A stretch of DNA of 40,645 nt from a virus. Its lineage: Duplodnaviria; Caudoviricetes. Under the pieces are notes generated by a model. It was not told the DNA's origin and searched no databases. It saw only the letters and a list, made by a program, of their open reading frames with translations. Within the stretch, counting starts at the first letter, position 1. Every line of letters starts with the position of its first letter. The translations under genes and the position numbers were made by a program. The stretch is taken from the IMG/VR virus record IMGVR_UViG_3300030207_000688, positions 1-40,645 of that record, one strand, 5' to 3'. Shown in pieces: positions 23,346 through 36,736 of this stretch.

Positions 23346-23772
23346 GCTCTAGGTGGACTGCTTCTGGAACCATCCCACTGATTAGTTTTGGTAAAAAAAT
23401 GTGAAGGGGTATACGTTACAAGACGAGCGACTCCAGGACCCCATAGCCCTGCCCCATCTTTTAAAATGTGTGGTAAATGTCGCCTTTTTGTCATTAAATA
23501 TAGGGGGAGTCTATATTTGCAGCGAATACAGCCACTTAACGCAAGATGTTTGATCTTGTGAGCTTGGTTTTTGTTTGTTGCTTGTGTTGTTTTCTTTTGG
23601 CTATGTGTTTGTTTGTTGTCCTGTGTTTTTGTTCTTGCTTGTATTCACATTGTAAATACTCAAATCTTTTTCAATTATTTATCTTGATATACTCTTTTGA
23701 TGTGCTACTTGTAACCACTGCAAACGTTTTGCAATAACTAAAAAAAACTAACCATTATTAAAAACTACTAAT

Positions 23773-24054
23773 ATGTTGCCTAAACATCTTGAAAACAGAG
23801 AAGTAATAATCCTTGATGACATAACCGAAGCTTACAGGGAGTATTATAATCACGTGGAAGAAGAATTCCTTGAAGCTAACGAAGACTTGAGACTCGAACA
23901 AATCGGATACAATAAAAAACAAATTGATGAGTTATCAGAAGAAGAACTGAGGTATGAAGAATGGGAGTTGAGGAATGAAAGATTTCTTAACAACTGTATC
24001 AAGTCCGAAAAGATAGTAAGAACTCAATTTGGATTATTATTAATAACTAATTAA
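23773..24054 (+). CDS. Early acidic hypothetical protein
   Basis: 93-aa Glu-rich ORF with an A-rich leader; first early gene. Confidence 0.7.
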   Translation: MLPKHLENREVIILDDITEAYREYYNHVEEEFLEANEDLRLEQIGYNKKQIDELSEEELRYEEWELRNERFLNNCIKSEKIVRTQFGLLLITN

Positions 24055-24187: not shown

Positions 24188-24217
24188 TAAACTAACCAAA
24201 AAAAAAAACTAACCATT

Positions 24218-24523
24218 ATGGAAACTACCACTATTAACACGCCAAAAGTTCACAATATGACTTCATCAAATGGGAATAAGATTGCTAATCAATTTGTAAT
24301 CGAATTGGGAATTGATGAGGAAATATTCCAAAGTTATAAAACAATAATTGCTCATAAAAAAGGTGCAGAGATAACTTTGGATTCTGATTATTGGGACTAT
24401 TCAAGAACCACTTCAAAATATAGAAACTCTTTTCTTGATATGACAACGCAAGAGATAAAGCAAGGAATCAAAAGTGGCTCTATTAAGCTTGAAAAATTAA
24501 ATGGTGCTAATCATTACGCTTAG
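24218..24523 (+). CDS. Conserved phage early protein of unknown function
   Basis: 101 aa; the NQFVI...FQSYKTIIA...YWDYSRTTSKYRNSFL pattern resembles a recurrent phage hypothetical family (from memory, not searched). Confidence 0.8.
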   Translation: METTTINTPKVHNMTSSNGNKIANQFVIELGIDEEIFQSYKTIIAHKKGAEITLDSDYWDYSRTTSKYRNSFLDMTTQEIKQGIKSGSIKLEKLNGANHYA

Positions 24524-24533
24524 TAAATAGAAG

Positions 24534-24590
24534 ACAGCCTATCAGGTTTAATTACTTGATGGGCTGTATTCAGTTTATTAATAAAACTGA
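24534..24590 (+). other. Intergenic tandem RNA hairpins (processing site or terminator)
   Basis: 14-bp stem ACAGCCTATCAGGT/ACTTGATGGGCTGT (2 G-U) with loop TTAATT, then a 7-bp stem TCAGTTT/AAACTGA. Confidence 0.6.
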
Positions 24591-24628
24591 GATAAAAAAA
24601 TAATATTAACAAACTACCAAAAAAATAA

Positions 24629-24976
24629 ATGGCAAAAATACTAAATAAAATTGCAAAAGTAATTCATACAAGCGAATCCCTTAAAGAGTTAGATGGGGAC
24701 TTTGAAAATTGGCATTATCAATTAGATGATAACGAAGAATACATGTTATCAAAAGGGGAATTTGGATGGCTTCAACACGTTACTAATTCCTACTCGATAG
24801 CCTCACACATTTGGGATAATTCATATTGTGACGATGATAATAATCTAATTTATAAAGTTGATTTGTTTGGAATGTCCGAAGCTCTAAAAGCTGATGGCAT
24901 GGCTCCAAAGGCTGTAATGCTAGATGATGAAACAGCATTGCAAGCAATATTCTTTTATTCCTCTTATCTTGATTAA
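24629..24976 (+). CDS. Early acidic hypothetical protein
   Basis: 115-aa ORF with an AACTACCA-containing leader. Confidence 0.75.
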   Translation: MAKILNKIAKVIHTSESLKELDGDFENWHYQLDDNEEYMLSKGEFGWLQHVTNSYSIASHIWDNSYCDDDNNLIYKVDLFGMSEALKADGMAPKAVMLDDETALQAIFFYSSYLD

Positions 24977-24984
24977 AAACAATT

Positions 24985-25314
24985 ATGAAAACAAAACCAA
25001 TATTATTAAACCAAACGCAAAAAGTAGGAAGCAACTCTAGAATTTGCTTATGGAATAGAAAACTAAATGATGCAGGGTTTCAAAGTGGAACCCCAATAAA
25101 AATAGAAGCCATTAATGGCGTTATAAAAATAACAAGAGATCCAAACGCTAAGCGCAAGGTATCAAAAGTTATTAATCATGGAAATGAATTACCAGTCATT
25201 GACCTTAAAAATACTAAAGCATTGCCACTTGCTGAGATGTTCTCACAAGGTGACAAAGTTAGTGTTAACATTGCAAGCGATCTTATTGAGATCAAAAGAA
25301 GGGAGGAGGCTTAA
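24985..25314 (+). CDS. SymE/AbrB-like swapped-hairpin protein
   Basis: 109 aa; ICLWNRKLNDAGFQSGTPIKIEAINGVIKIT matches the SymE-like L..AGF..G..(I/V).(I/V)....G.I pattern; second similar repeat FSQGDKVSVNIASDLIEI. Confidence 0.55.
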   Translation: MKTKPILLNQTQKVGSNSRICLWNRKLNDAGFQSGTPIKIEAINGVIKITRDPNAKRKVSKVINHGNELPVIDLKNTKALPLAEMFSQGDKVSVNIASDLIEIKRREEA

Positions 25315-25914: not shown

Positions 25915-26256
25915 ATGAAAACTGAAGTAAAGAAAAAAAGAAAACGACCAAGGCTTGAAAATTACCAAGAAGTAGTTAGTAAGGTTCTTGATTCCATTGC
26001 AAGACACTCAGGTTATAGTTCTGAGCGTATTAGAAACAACAGCGACCATTTAACAGTCGGTTGGAGGCATTTGGCTATGTACGTCCTACAAATACATTAT
26101 GATTGGACTTTGAGAGGCATTGCAGAAGTCTTCGATCAGACAGCACAAAATGTTTATACTGCTAATAATGCTTTTGAAGCAAAGTTAAATGACGAGGAGA
26201 AGCAGCATGAATATTCACCAATACTCAGAAAAGTAATTGAGGACTTAGAGTTATGA
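25915..26256 (+). CDS. DnaA C-terminal (domain IV)-like helix-turn-helix protein
   Basis: RHLAMYVLQIHYDWTLRGIAEVFDQTAQNVYTANNAFEAKL parallels the DnaA domain IV pattern RQIAMYL......SL..IG..F..RDHTTV.HA. Confidence 0.7.
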   Translation: MKTEVKKKRKRPRLENYQEVVSKVLDSIARHSGYSSERIRNNSDHLTVGWRHLAMYVLQIHYDWTLRGIAEVFDQTAQNVYTANNAFEAKLNDEEKQHEYSPILRKVIEDLEL

Positions 26257-26339
26257 TAATGTTTGCTGCTGTTGCAGTATCCTGGTTATTACTTATTATT
26301 CTTATACTAAGATTTTTTAAAGTAAATGATTGGGAATAA
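26253..26339 (+). CDS. Putative 28-aa single-pass membrane peptide
   Basis: Manual translation MIMFAAVAVSWLLLIILILRFFKVNDWE; ATGA overlap with the previous stop suggests translational coupling. Confidence 0.55.
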   Translation: MIMFAAVAVSWLLLIILILRFFKVNDWE

Positions 26340-26343
26340 TGGG

Positions 26344-26371
26344 TTGACTTAAATAAAAACTACATCACATT
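26344..26371 (+). promoter_or_regulatory. Host sigma70-like promoter for the putative sRNA
   Basis: TTGACT (26344-26349), 16-nt spacer, CACATT (26366-26371); same geometry as the promoter at 24072. Confidence 0.5.
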
Positions 26372-26380
26372 AATATTATT

Positions 26381-26453
26381 GGAGATCAAATTGGGATTTT
26401 TTCGGCAAGTTTATTTGGTAGTTTTCTTGTTGCCCTTTTTGATCTCTTTTTTT
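26381..26453 (+). ncRNA. Putative self-terminating small regulatory RNA
   Basis: Stems GAGATCAAA/TTTGATCTC, GGG/CCC and CGGCAAG/CTTGTTG enclose a 16-nt loop TTTATTTGGTAGTTTT. It is followed by a run of 7 T and preceded by a promoter. Confidence 0.55.
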
Positions 26454-26459
26454 GTCTAT

Positions 26460-26490
26460 TTGACAAGGTTACTATTGTAATATTTATTAT
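26460..26490 (+). promoter_or_regulatory. Possible host promoter for the integrase/RNAP operon
   Basis: Perfect TTGACA at 26460-26465; the best -10 (TATTAT, 26485-26490) has a suboptimal 19-nt spacing. Confidence 0.35.
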
Positions 26491-26552
26491 TAATATATAT
26501 TTATTACCAAAACTAACTACCAACTATTGAAGAGAAAGGAACTACCAAAGCA

Positions 26553-27587
26553 ATGGCTACAAGAAAAAACGGCACTAAATTTCTCGCTGATTTCATGGTC
26601 AAAAATGAACGTTACAGAAAGCAGTTTGATTCTGAGATTGAGGCAAAAGAATATGAAACGAACGTAAGAGCAAAGTTACATAGGGGCGAAAGAGTTGATA
26701 AGGATGATAAACGACTGGAGCCAATAACACTTTCACAAATGTTTACTAAGGTTGTATTAAACGTATGGCAGGGAAAAGCAAATGAGCCTACAGCGTTGCA
26801 GCATATCTCTATGATAGAAAGGTTTTTTGGTGCAAAGAAGTTAGCTCATACGATTGATATAAATGACTTTGATAGATTTAAGTTACATTGCAAGGAACTA
26901 GGAAATTCACCTGCAACAATTCGATTAAAGTTTGCAACGATTTCTAAGGCTTTTGGTTTTGCTTTTTCGAGAGGGTGGATTCCAAAAAAACCTTTGATGC
27001 CTGAGTTGGATAAAGTTAACAACCAGAGGGAAGCTTTTTTTAGTGATGAAGAAGAGGCAGATATATTGGAATACCTAGAGGAGATAGGTGAGGATTACTT
27101 TGCAGATTTTTTCATGTGGCAGATAGATACAGGGATGCGTCCAAGTGAGGCAAGAAGGGTTCACGCAAGTCAGGTATATTCTGATCCGCAACTAGGATAC
27201 GTTGTAGATTTAAAGGAAACAAAGAACAACGAGCCAAGAAAGATTCCTTTGACTAGACGAGCTAACATTGCATTTCGTAATCATTACAAAAAAGGAAAGA
27301 TGTGGGAGCATTGGACAAAGGAAAGAATCAGGACTGTTTGGGACAAGGTAAAAAGATCCCTTGGAAGAGAGAAAGATAGGGATTTTATTTTTTATCTTTG
27401 CAGACACACATGTGGCTCCAGACTTGTACAAAGGACAGGAAACATAGCACTGACAAAGAAGTGGTTAGGGCATAAAAGAATCGAGCAAACTCTAAGATAT
27501 GCACACCTCAACTCTAACAGTTTACTAAGCGGATTAAAAGCACTAGAATATGGTGCATTGTGTGGTGACAAAAAAGGATTATGTTAG
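26553..27587 (+). CDS. int: Tyrosine recombinase / integrase
   Basis: 344 aa; TGMRPSE (R), TKNN (K), YLCRH (HxxR with His replaced by Tyr), WLGH and TLRYAHL (catalytic Y); N-terminal arm-binding-like RYRKQF segment. Confidence 0.92.
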   Translation: MATRKNGTKFLADFMVKNERYRKQFDSEIEAKEYETNVRAKLHRGERVDKDDKRLEPITLSQMFTKVVLNVWQGKANEPTALQHISMIERFFGAKKLAHTIDINDFDRFKLHCKELGNSPATIRLKFATISKAFGFAFSRGWIPKKPLMPELDKVNNQREAFFSDEEEADILEYLEEIGEDYFADFFMWQIDTGMRPSEARRVHASQVYSDPQLGYVVDLKETKNNEPRKIPLTRRANIAFRNHYKKGKMWEHWTKERIRTVWDKVKRSLGREKDRDFIFYLCRHTCGSRLVQRTGNIALTKKWLGHKRIEQTLRYAHLNSNSLLSGLKALEYGALCGDKKGLC

Positions 27588-30010
27588 AGCAAGAAGATCT
27601 TAACCAAGAAATGTCTGAAATAGGACAGGGCAGATACAATGCACAAATTGAAAGTGCAAGAAAGTATGACCAGAACGCCCGTACAAAATCAGGACAAAAA
27701 CTTATGAGAGAACTTTTGCCTGAGTTCTATGAAAGAATAAGAGAGATGTTAAGACCAAAGGCAGGTAGACCAACGAGGTGGCTTACCGACTTGAAAGAGT
27801 ATGATCCAAAGAAGACTGCATTTATAACACTCAAGACAGTTCTTAACTGTATTCCTTACAAAAAGACAATGGCATCTATGAGTTATACTGTAGGTGCAGC
27901 TATTGAGAATGAAATAAGATGTATATTTTTGGTACGTACTAATGACAGAGGTGAAGGCATAATAAAAGGAGCAAAGCAAAGAGCAACTTCATCACAAGTT
28001 CCGCACATAAAACGCTCCATGAAGCATGAGAAAAACAAAAGAGGCATAGAAGATTTTGAGCCTTGGTCTAAAAGAGATCGACTGTCCTGTGGTATTGCAT
28101 TAATTGAAATATTAAGATCAAGTACTGCTTTGATCGAGTATGTGTATTTAAAAGATAAAGGAAGAAAAACACCTACGAGATTTGTAACTGCAACGCCTAC
28201 GACATTAAAGTGGATCGAAGATTTTAATAATCACAGGTCATTGCTTGAGCCTTTTTGGTTACCAATGGTTGAGCCTCCAGAGGATTGGACAAGCATTTGG
28301 GAAGGTGGATATAAAATTGAAGGTACTACACTTCCAAAGCTTACTTTTATCAAAACACCAGATGCAAAGTTTCTTCGTGAGCTTAACCCAAAAGATTTAA
28401 AAGTACCTTTTGAAGCTGCAAATCTTATACAAAGAACACCTTGGGAGATAAACGAGCGAGTACTTGATGTGGTCCTTTGGGCTTGGGATAATAATGTGCC
28501 TGTAGGTTCTACTATTGTTAGTCAGGAAGATGAACCTTTACCTCCTTTTCCTGTAGATGGAGATGAAAACAAAGATGTAAAGAGGCAATGGGCTGCAATG
28601 GCATCAGGAGTTTACAAAAGAAATACTTCAACGAGATCTAAGCGTGTTCTTTGTGGTACTGTTATAAAGTTAGCCGAAAAGTTTAAAGGCATGAGGTTTT
28701 GGACACCAGTGAATGCGTGTTTTCGTGGAAGACTTTATTCAATACCATCTTTTTTGAACATACAAGGAACAGATTTATCAAGAGGACTGCTGCAATTTGA
28801 ACGAAGTGAACGTGTACGAAATAAAAAAGAAGCAAGGTGGCTTGCAATACATGGAGCTAACTGTTGGGGCTACGACAAAGTTTCATTAGATGATCGTGAG
28901 CAATGGGCTTATGACAACGCTGAAATGATTACACGTATTGCAGAAGATCCAACTAGAAATACAGAGTGGATGGACGCAGATGGTAATGGCTGTTTTCAGT
29001 TCCTTGCTTTTTGTTTTGAGTGGGCTGATTTTTTACGTGATGGAAAACTTAAAACAAAACTTCCATGTTCGATGGACGCAACCAACAATGGGCTTCAAAT
29101 ATTATCAATACTGACTCGTTGTGATTATGGTTGTGTTGCTACAAATGTTATCCCTACCACAAAACCTGCTGACATTTATGATGTTGTCAGAGTACGTGTG
29201 GAAAGTTATTTGGCTGAAGATGCAAAGCAGGGACATCCTTTTGCACAAGCGTGGCTTGACTATGGATTAAACAGATCCATGACGAAAAAAAGTGTCATGT
29301 GCTACTCGTATGGATTGACCATGTATTCTAACAGGCAGTATATAACTGATTGGTTTGAAGAAAAAATACACGCTGACAGTTGTCCTTCTCCTTTTGATTT
29401 ATCTGAGTATTACAAAGCTATTCATTATCTTGCTGAAAAGGTTTGGCAAGGTGTTGAAGAAATCCTGGATCTTCCAAAACAATGTATGCACTGGTTCCAA
29501 GAGGTTTGCAATATTGTTACGAGAGAGGAGCGACATTTAACATGGAAAACTCCTTCTGGTTTTATTGTAAAGCAGGATTACAAAAAACTTAAAGATAGGA
29601 AGGTAAGTACATTCATCACTGGTGAAGCAGTTCATGTTAATTTTAAGGAGGACACAGATAAGATTTCACCGAAGGCAATGCGTAATGGTGTATCTGCTAA
29701 TACAGTTCATGCCCTAGATGCTGCTTTATTACACAATGTCGTAGTGAATGCAGCCAAGGAAGACAAGCATGGAAAAGCTATTTATGATTTTGCAATGATC
29801 CATGACAGCTTTGGGACTCACTGCAAAAACTCAGATAAATTAGCAAAGATAATTCGTGAACAAGCTGTCGAGATGTTTACACCTGATCTTCTAAGGGATT
29901 GGCTTGACCAGATTAAAAAACAAAACCCTGACTTAAATTTTCCTGATCCTCCTGAGTATGGACAAGCTGAGATATCACTCATCAAGGACAGTAAGTATTT
30001 CTTTTCCTAA
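27581..30010 (+). CDS. Single-subunit DNA-directed RNA polymerase, T7 gp1-like
   Basis: 809 aa; FRGRLY, motif A SMDATNNGLQ, motif B RSMTKKSVMCYSYG, motif C IHDSFGTH and the C-terminal YFFS. Confidence 0.97.
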   Translation: MLEQEDLNQEMSEIGQGRYNAQIESARKYDQNARTKSGQKLMRELLPEFYERIREMLRPKAGRPTRWLTDLKEYDPKKTAFITLKTVLNCIPYKKTMASMSYTVGAAIENEIRCIFLVRTNDRGEGIIKGAKQRATSSQVPHIKRSMKHEKNKRGIEDFEPWSKRDRLSCGIALIEILRSSTALIEYVYLKDKGRKTPTRFVTATPTTLKWIEDFNNHRSLLEPFWLPMVEPPEDWTSIWEGGYKIEGTTLPKLTFIKTPDAKFLRELNPKDLKVPFEAANLIQRTPWEINERVLDVVLWAWDNNVPVGSTIVSQEDEPLPPFPVDGDENKDVKRQWAAMASGVYKRNTSTRSKRVLCGTVIKLAEKFKGMRFWTPVNACFRGRLYSIPSFLNIQGTDLSRGLLQFERSERVRNKKEARWLAIHGANCWGYDKVSLDDREQWAYDNAEMITRIAEDPTRNTEWMDADGNGCFQFLAFCFEWADFLRDGKLKTKLPCSMDATNNGLQILSILTRCDYGCVATNVIPTTKPADIYDVVRVRVESYLAEDAKQGHPFAQAWLDYGLNRSMTKKSVMCYSYGLTMYSNRQYITDWFEEKIHADSCPSPFDLSEYYKAIHYLAEKVWQGVEEILDLPKQCMHWFQEVCNIVTREERHLTWKTPSGFIVKQDYKKLKDRKVSTFITGEAVHVNFKEDTDKISPKAMRNGVSANTVHALDAALLHNVVVNAAKEDKHGKAIYDFAMIHDSFGTHCKNSDKLAKIIREQAVEMFTPDLLRDWLDQIKKQNPDLNFPDPPEYGQAEISLIKDSKYFFS

Positions 30011-36463: not shown

Positions 36464-36727
36464 ATGGCAAAAAGGAAAAGAATCAAGCTTACTAGCAAAC
36501 ATAAAGACCCAAAAGGGGGACTAAATGCAGCAGGAAGACGAGCAGCAAAACGCCAAGGGAGTAATCTTAAACCTCCAGTTTCATCAAAGCAAGCTAAAAG
36601 AAGCCCAAAGGCTGCTGCAAGAAGAAGATCTTTTTGTGCTAGAATGGGCGGAGTTAAGGGACCAATGAAAGATAAGAAGGGAAGACCAACTAGAAAAGCT
36701 TTAGCCCTGAGAAAATGGGACTGCTAA
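36464..36727 (+). CDS. Small highly basic phage protein (DUF6321-like)
   Basis: 87 aa; KDPKGGLNAAGR...NLKPP...RRRSFCARMGG...ALRKWDC pattern. Confidence 0.8.
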   Translation: MAKRKRIKLTSKHKDPKGGLNAAGRRAAKRQGSNLKPPVSSKQAKRSPKAAARRRSFCARMGGVKGPMKDKKGRPTRKALALRKWDC

Positions 36728-36736
36728 ATAAAACAA

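Follow-up and report, generated by a model that had tools for sequence, protein, structure and literature searches.

A predicted small RNA between the early genes and integrase of a T7-like phage carries a loop that covaries with motifs at integrase and early-gene starts

How integrase-bearing T7-like phages stay quiet or choose lysogeny is an open question. In HTVC019P-type pelagiphages (10.1101/410191) and in LUZ100 (PMC10134795), int is described upstream of the RNA polymerase (RNAP) gene, with an attP site containing the 5′ part of a tRNA between the two; the available text of the pelagiphage report states lysogeny control to be unknown and leaves it for future work, that of the LUZ100 report proposes, as a hypothesis, a MarR-like gene directly upstream of int as the switch, and neither available text mentions an RNA of the kind considered here. 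We address this question in an uncultured T7-like phage with an integrase, using a window that comprises its whole 40.6-kb virus record (40,645 nt). Named relatives of this phage are distant (the best named integrase match is LUZ100, at 31.7%) and, unlike in LUZ100-type control, no MarR-like gene was found directly upstream of int. Between the early genes and int lies a promoter-like sequence followed by a long hairpin and a T run, which an earlier note on this DNA had read as an RNA that co-represses several early mRNAs. Based on comparison with related phages, we consider it probable that this promoter–hairpin–U-tract element encodes a ~75-nt RNA that pairs in trans at int and early-gene starts, likely blocking ribosome loading.

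Table 1. Features of the locus and of the outgroup tract (window coordinates unless a locus is named; energies in kcal/mol).
Feature	Position	Strand	Basis
AACTAACCA copy and wobble site before ORF 23773	23746..23771	+	rank 5/43, −7.9
Early ORF, predicted target, no function assigned	23773..24054	+	ORF list, profile scans
Two AACTAACCA copies before ORF 24218	24190..24215	+	pairing with one bulged A inferred
Early ORF, predicted target, phrog_21575 (function unknown)	24218..24523	+	
Predicted target, codons 2–5 of ORF 24218	24222..24230	+	rank 4/43, −8.7
Predicted target before ORF 24629	24611..24621	+	rank 2/43, −10.7
Early ORF, predicted target, no function assigned	24629..24976	+	
DnaA_C-type HTH protein, conserved, not targeted	25915..26256	+	Pfam E 1.6e-4 (below cut-off), atlas 0.94
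28-aa hydrophobic ORF, conserved, stops just 5′ of promoter	26253..26339	+	
Predicted sigma-70-type promoter, TTGACT-16 nt-CACATT (TTGACT 26344, CACATT 26366)	26344..26371	+	conservation
Predicted ~75-nt small RNA	26379..26453	+	5′ end inferred from promoter spacing; fold, conservation
Long hairpin: lower stem, U-rich 5′ bulge, upper stem	26381..26446	+	compensatory changes
Apical loop, predicted seed (16 nt)	26410..26425	+	covaries with start-site motif
U tract, 7 T, intrinsic-terminator-like end	26447..26453	+	T runs 3′ of hairpin in lineages I and II
Second TTGACA, candidate −35 of int promoter	26460..26465	+	no clear −10 in window
Distal predicted target, int leader	26515..26523	+	motif match
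Proximal predicted target, int leader	26540..26549	+	rank 1/43 starts, −11.3
Tyrosine integrase, predicted main target	26553..27587	+	
int/RNAP junction without attP-like site, ~256 nt missing	27560..27587	+	arithmetic versus L150
T7-like RNA polymerase ORF, start not targeted	27581..30010	+	family by sequence and gene order, not profile scan
Outgroup tract, examples	L141:288-360, L213:684-770, L211:2453-2530, L140:1-55, other loci		

The coordinates that the earlier note had given for promoter, hairpin, T run, loop and motif matches were every one correct on recheck (Table 1). The hairpin has a folding energy of −23.6 kcal/mol (z −4.67), a stability that 0 of 200 shuffles reach, and the minimum-free-energy structure draws a weak 3-bp helix within the loop. 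Relatives were collected by integrase queries, and 83 loci, window included, were examined; those without upstream sequence, very distant matches and two duplicates were left out. The hairpin is conserved among relatives: a long hairpin and then a T run lie ~70–120 nt 5′ of int at 43 of 43 loci with an integrase 53–100% identical, and a long hairpin, in some cases of variant form, occupies the same place at 12 of 12 further loci (integrase 44–49% identical to the window's). The promoter–hairpin–U-tract arrangement upstream of int was found at 0 of 40 outgroup loci (integrase 35–43% identical). The integrase tree joins the 31 carrier rows in one clade (100/98), with one long outgroup branch flagged.

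The 43 loci, three of which are other assemblies of the window's phage, yield 21 distinct hairpins, and their structure is conserved. Double changes occur in 10 of 11 lower-stem pairs, and lower-stem cells are paired in 91% of cases versus 48–65% when slid, for a structure derived from the same sequences. In the upper stem, pairs one to five are canonical throughout the 21 hairpins (best of three registers). The plus strand folds better in all 21, and G-U pairs number 86 on the plus strand versus 2 on the minus strand. A model built on lineages I and II (R1) finds one copy in the window and L232 weakly, and misses lineages III and IV and the outgroup. The promoter-like element of the earlier note stood in part: the promoter at 26344 did not pass a generic promoter scan of the window, but all 35 loci inspected have TTGAC 5′ of the hairpin, and a YAnnnT −10 follows at 16–18 nt in 24/24 loci of lineages I and II and in 1/11 other loci. 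The −35 is retained in L006 despite loss of the upstream ORF, and also where that ORF ends earlier. Support for the predicted promoter thus comes from its conservation.

Several variations surround the element. Relatives of the ORF that stops just 5′ of the promoter encode 28–45 aa, hydrophobic and with an RFF motif, and their 3′ end overlaps or abuts the −35 box; the product could be a membrane exclusion peptide. In L005, L007, L009, L132 and L133, an extra small stem-loop with a G-rich loop sits between the promoter and the main hairpin, which suggests a longer RNA or a second promoter in that sublineage. Between the hairpin and int, L005, L007, L009, L170, L171, L003 and L151 carry a GGTAC-N7-GTACC inverted repeat or variants of it; this operator- or recombinase-site-like repeat lies in the int promoter/leader and is not evident in the window. 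In L227–L230, the predicted RNA upstream of int takes a longer form: its seed is single-stranded, and there is a second U/G-rich loop, the complement of which, AAACGAAC, is found in the int promoter region and in one early leader; in L227, a seed complement lies directly 3′ of the hairpin.

The sites complementary to the loop cluster at translation starts. AACTACCA has five copies on the plus strand of the window (24223, 24612, 26515, 26540 and, in a late gene, 11090) and one on the minus strand, located in the hairpin loop, while the three copies of AACTAACCA all fall within early leaders. We ranked the 43 start codons of the window with a custom script that includes opening energies, not with IntaRNA; early and int starts compared with other starts give p = 0.016, with only 4/10 early/int starts being predicted targets, the other six early starts weak, and the non-early starts 36737 and 37116 ranking third and sixth. 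The predicted antisense sites thus lie at start codons of separate genes, up to 2.7 kb from the RNA. That the loop matches at early and int start windows, which the earlier note had seen to cluster, exceed chance is borne out by two rankings: the hairpin is first of 131 stable window hairpins for early/int start matches (5/10), and the loop is the sole locus among 10,156 sliding windows to reach 4/10 early/int starts. The second-best antisense window against early leaders (3/10) is a T/G-rich tract at 23570–23640, which separates the conserved TGAAGGGG terminus-associated motif from the first early gene. A possible 12-nt loop pairing with several G-U pairs covers 36720–36732, in the start region of ORF 36737 (rank 3/43). 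There is also a 16-nt match between the 3′ stem strand of the hairpin and the int start; that stem strand varies between relatives.

Between lineages, the loop and the start-site motif change together. In lineage I, the loop is UUGGUAGUU, its UUGGUAG going with ACUACCA of the int leader, and the motif is present in 10/10 int leaders; in lineage II, the loop is UUAGGUAGUU and int leaders carry CCUAAC. The loop UUAGGUAG goes with the start-site motif ACCUAA, lineage III combines the loop UUUUGGUU with leaders AACCAAAA, and lineage IV has a single-stranded seed containing both UUGGU and UUAGGU, 5′ of a terminator-like hairpin. Smaller changes are also matched: in L163, loop and int site are each shorter by one deleted base, and a loop insertion in L165 matches the early leader AACTATACC. 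In lineage II, the early-leader form ACTAACCT (7 sense, 0 antisense) fits the constant AGUU half of the loop. By binding energy, own-lineage loops beat the other lineage's loops at 21/21 int leaders, and 15 of the 21 self loop–leader pairs exceed shuffled leaders at p < 0.05, the other six not.

The earlier note's enrichment of the motif at early starts holds over background and switches with lineage. The type-I motif is found in 30/90 early start windows of lineage I versus 1/67 of lineage II, and ACCTA in 4/90 versus 24/67; non-early starts give 1/38 and 0/34, and outgroup early starts carry the same motifs at a background level of 14/146 and 24/146 (10–16%), all of these counts being pseudo-replicated and reducing to about five or six independent seed changes (I, II, III, IV and two indels). 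Fisher p values overstate the evidence because the genomes are related. Genes were called by a simple first-ATG rule, and orthologous early genes switch motif in only 6/8 families, some of them marginal. The sites peak 7–13 nt 5′ of the ATG, with more within the first codons, and their sense:antisense ratios are 42:1 and 45:1 in early regions versus 1:1 and 21:29 downstream. One-mismatch variants are still G-U-pairable in 17/22 cases in carriers versus 1/5 in the outgroup, a wobble signal part of which C-to-T bias can mimic. The apical loop holds the inverted motif copy in 21/21 hairpins. For every seed type, matches are most frequent to leaders of the same lineage (0.45, 0.11, 0.30 and 0.26), and the element ranks first among 121–155 hairpins in 6/7 carrier genomes.

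Lineage II is the weak case: its loops bind lineage I int leaders (−10.6) better than their own proximal sites (−8.6), self pairing averages −10.3 in a wider window, and, by contiguous 8-mers, lineage II leaders match the seeds of I (0.15) and IV (0.20) more than those of II (0.11). L232 has the hairpin and no clear match to its own early leaders in the hairpin ranking or sliding windows. The structured plus-strand RNA anticipated in the earlier note is supported, with a loop that covaries with the start-site motifs of int and several early genes. As the loop changes in step with these motifs, the element is therefore likely a small RNA that would silence several of the phage's own genes together. 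The predicted seed and its set of predicted target sites coevolve across the phage clade, and such coevolution is rare genome-only evidence for an RNA regulon.

Other origins of this pattern have to be weighed against an RNA with its own promoter. The same pairing could arise if the hairpin were the 3′ terminator of a polycistronic early mRNA, with the loop acting from a long or processed RNA. The upstream early genes all read toward the hairpin, which ends in a U tract, the −10 is not clear outside lineages I and II, and the antisense tract of the outgroup (below) directly follows a stop codon, 5′ of a terminator-like hairpin; however, this source is rather unlikely given TTGAC at 35/35 loci, a spaced −10 at 24/24 lineage I/II loci, a −35 retained where a potentially constraining ORF is lost or ends earlier, and a 65–85-nt stem with a 13–18-nt loop, long for a plain terminator. 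Regulation might also be confined to int, in cis on read-through, the early motif being a homogenised translation enhancer shared with the int leader. We judge this decidedly unlikely: although int is the top target, the motif is in all ten lineage I int leaders, the sites lie 90–130 nt 3′ of the loop and outgroup leaders are likewise repetitive and A/C-rich, a U tract and a second −35 stand between the hairpin and the int leader, the constant AGUU half of lineage II fits the early-leader ACTAACCT better than the int form GACCCTAAC, and the L165 insertion matches an early leader.

Alternatively, the motif might be where a phage protein, such as the DnaA_C-type HTH, binds DNA, with an inverted copy in an ordinary terminator and copies that track a drifting specificity; a conserved HTH gene adjoins the element, and the 9-mers bound by DnaA domain IV are non-palindromic. 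Against such a DNA site, the motif copies are 42:1 and 45:1 sense with mostly G-U-compatible variants, they peak 7–13 nt before the ATG, the inverted copy is apical in 21/21 hairpins, and the one-base deletion of L163 is matched in loop and target; we regard it as very improbable. The earlier note's own alternative, in which the loop of a minus-strand transcript presents the motif and so acts as decoy to an RNA-binding protein, is disfavoured to the point of being extremely improbable, because the minus strand folds worse in 21/21, the G-U counts (86 versus 2) favour the plus strand, and promoter and U tract face that way, even though such a loop would display the motif in the target sense and a weak AbrB/SymE-like ORF is present at 24985. 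The view that a U/G-rich terminator loop happens by chance to be complementary to A/C-rich leaders merits almost no credence either: leaders are A/C-rich group-wide and the motif reaches 10–16% of outgroup early starts as background, but the lineage-specific switching, together with first place among 121–155 hairpins in 6/7 genomes, leaves it largely refuted by covariation.

We therefore return to a trans-acting ~75-nt RNA, for which a discrete transcript, pairing in vivo and repression are all predicted. Host RNA polymerase would transcribe it as a discrete RNA, and its open loop would pair over 7–13 nt with unstructured A/C-rich start regions, excluding the 30S subunit. The predicted repressed set consists of int and three early genes (24629, 24218 and 23773). 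The RNA would act as a slowly accumulating brake on these genes, damping them after the first minutes of infection; in a lysogen, it would keep int and the early genes quiet and could also act on incoming phages with the same seed. One 75-nt RNA with defined 7–13-nt targets and natural seed variants allows predictions of which RNA represses which leader.

The int/RNAP junction bears on this role. In 27/33 relatives, a ~195-nt int–RNAP gap contains part of a tRNA-Leu, its 5′ half, with TGACAA-type repeats on either side; this attP-like arrangement corresponds to the one described for pelagiphage attP in the available text of 10.1101/410191. An attP with a tRNA part between int and RNAP is absent from the window: the missing ~256 nt lies between short repeats at a junction shared by the assemblies L147–L149, and the int and RNAP ORFs overlap because the attP-like site was lost. 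Loss of this site with int and the RNA kept is seen in the window and in six of 33 relatives (L006, L009, L132, L133, L165 and L167). Co-repression of an int–RNAP pair, as proposed in the earlier note, is not supported, since the RNAP start reaches −0.5 kcal/mol only and the attP-like site separates the two genes in those 27 relatives. Integration would separate RNAP from int and put it behind a host tRNA promoter, and, because attP lies between int and RNAP, the early genes, the RNA and int would remain together in the prophage.

The attP-like site of L001, L152, L164, L227, L233 and others has a tRNA-Leu(TAG) 5′ half as its core, and variants in the D stem preserve its pairing. Of 32 genome stretches matched by one core variant, 30 are labelled alphaproteobacterial, including nine from SAR116/Puniceispirillales; these matches include 30 complete tRNA-Leu(TAG) genes, and since the tRNA half is conserved and near-matches were not included, they do not identify the host. 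No prophage was found beside the 32 matches or in a search of GTDB genomes with the integrase alignment. Lysogen maintenance or immunity and lytic early shut-off stand at about even odds as the role of the predicted RNA, and they are not mutually exclusive. Retention of the RNA in the attP-less phages argues against a purely lysogenic role and points to a lytic one too.

Known RNA regulators resemble the element in parts. The P1/P7 C4 RNA, as described in the available text of PMC5320573, is a ~77-nt phage RNA that serves immunity and lysogeny through loops pairing close to the ribosome-binding site of phage mRNA, and a few base changes in RNA and target alter its specificity; it has three stem-loops, of which two loops are used, and is cut from a precursor by RNase P. 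The likeness, as far as that text goes, lies in a phage RNA pairing near the ribosome-binding site and in a seed diversification that recalls P1/P7 specificity, whereas the present element has one long hairpin, its own predicted promoter and one seed for several separate start sites, in a T7-like phage. The Rfam C4 model gave no match at E ≤ 5 in the window region or at E ≤ 1 in 11 relatives, and no Rfam family came near threshold for the element in these sequences. The P4 CI RNA is processed from the transcript that it regulates, by premature termination via flanking seqA/seqC (PMC4825925, available text). It shares RNA-based control of early functions and trans pairing to more than one site; the sites here, unlike those flanking ones, as far as described, lie at start codons of separate, distant genes.

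The closest analogue in mechanism is GcvB of enterobacteria, a multi-target sRNA that, in the available text of PMC3879156, silences A/C-rich, translation-enhancing leader elements (ACA enhancers). Like GcvB-type trans sRNAs, the element has a predicted promoter of its own and a predicted intrinsic terminator, both judged from conservation within lineages I and II, a short accessible seed complementary to several translation-initiation regions, and seed–target covariation, weak in lineage II and absent in L232. The likeness is mechanistic, without sequence homology, and whereas GcvB, as described, is a host RNA with host targets, a phage RNA would here act on its own phage's genes from a hairpin loop, with lineage-wise coevolution. 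Sar and OOP are cis-encoded antisense RNAs; the RNA proposed here, by contrast, shares its strand with its several predicted targets, and the predicted pairing spans just 7–13 nt. The available text of PMC12197685 describes P22 Sar and lambda OOP and aQ as phage RNAs that tune lysis/lysogeny via phage mRNA pairing, with a single target each.

A literature search, mostly without subscription papers, returned no report of such an RNA in T7-like phages, and the three of six supplements searched of a catalogue of viral candidate RNAs (PMC10690425) hold no match. BLASTn of the element against named phages gave short weak matches only, and most of the matches listed when viral contigs were scanned with a loop pattern are attributable to chance. 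We thus class the predicted element as a phage antisense RNA of known kind that is new in its multi-gene, coevolving target set.

Protein regulators may act at the same locus. A correction to the earlier note, which recognised no CI/XRE repressor, is that a DnaA_C-type HTH gene conserved in all four lineages (28 family members) adjoins the element and may be a protein regulator. A weak AbrB/SymE-like assignment applies to the early ORF at 24985–25314 (Pfam E 0.019; atlas 0.91 with 13% SymE members). A profile of the outgroup-type MarR (A6, only 5 rows) finds no match in the window's record or in nine carrier records and detects MarR in 2/6 outgroup records. The idea that the RNA replaces MarR was rejected as a general claim: four of the six outgroup records are without both, and MarR-bearing L138 and L141 have an antisense-loop hairpin of their own.

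The outgroup phages carry a second antisense element. Downstream of the last late gene's stop codon, 18/19 rows (duplicates included) carry a G/U-rich tract with a terminator-like hairpin. The tract, present in phages with MarR and in those without it, is complementary to each phage's own ACAC-rich early leaders. Among antisense windows it comes top in L140, L141 and L213 and not in L138, L211 and L218; its hairpin ranks first in L138 and L141. Possibly, this tract provides a late-made antisense shut-off of early genes. A broader reading, which we put forward tentatively and would not yet favour, is a temperate T7-like lineage with one short RNA as its repressor: a target box shared by int and early starts would allow silencing in the prophage and in superinfecting kin, seed variants would define immunity groups, and the outgroup tract would be a second, independent solution. 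If true, antisense silencing of early leaders would be a general rule in this phage group.

A further structured region lies among the early genes themselves: at 24534–24585 of the window and at L006:1115-1170, an intergenic hairpin is followed by a second short inverted repeat, and this hairpin is a possible processing site or terminator.
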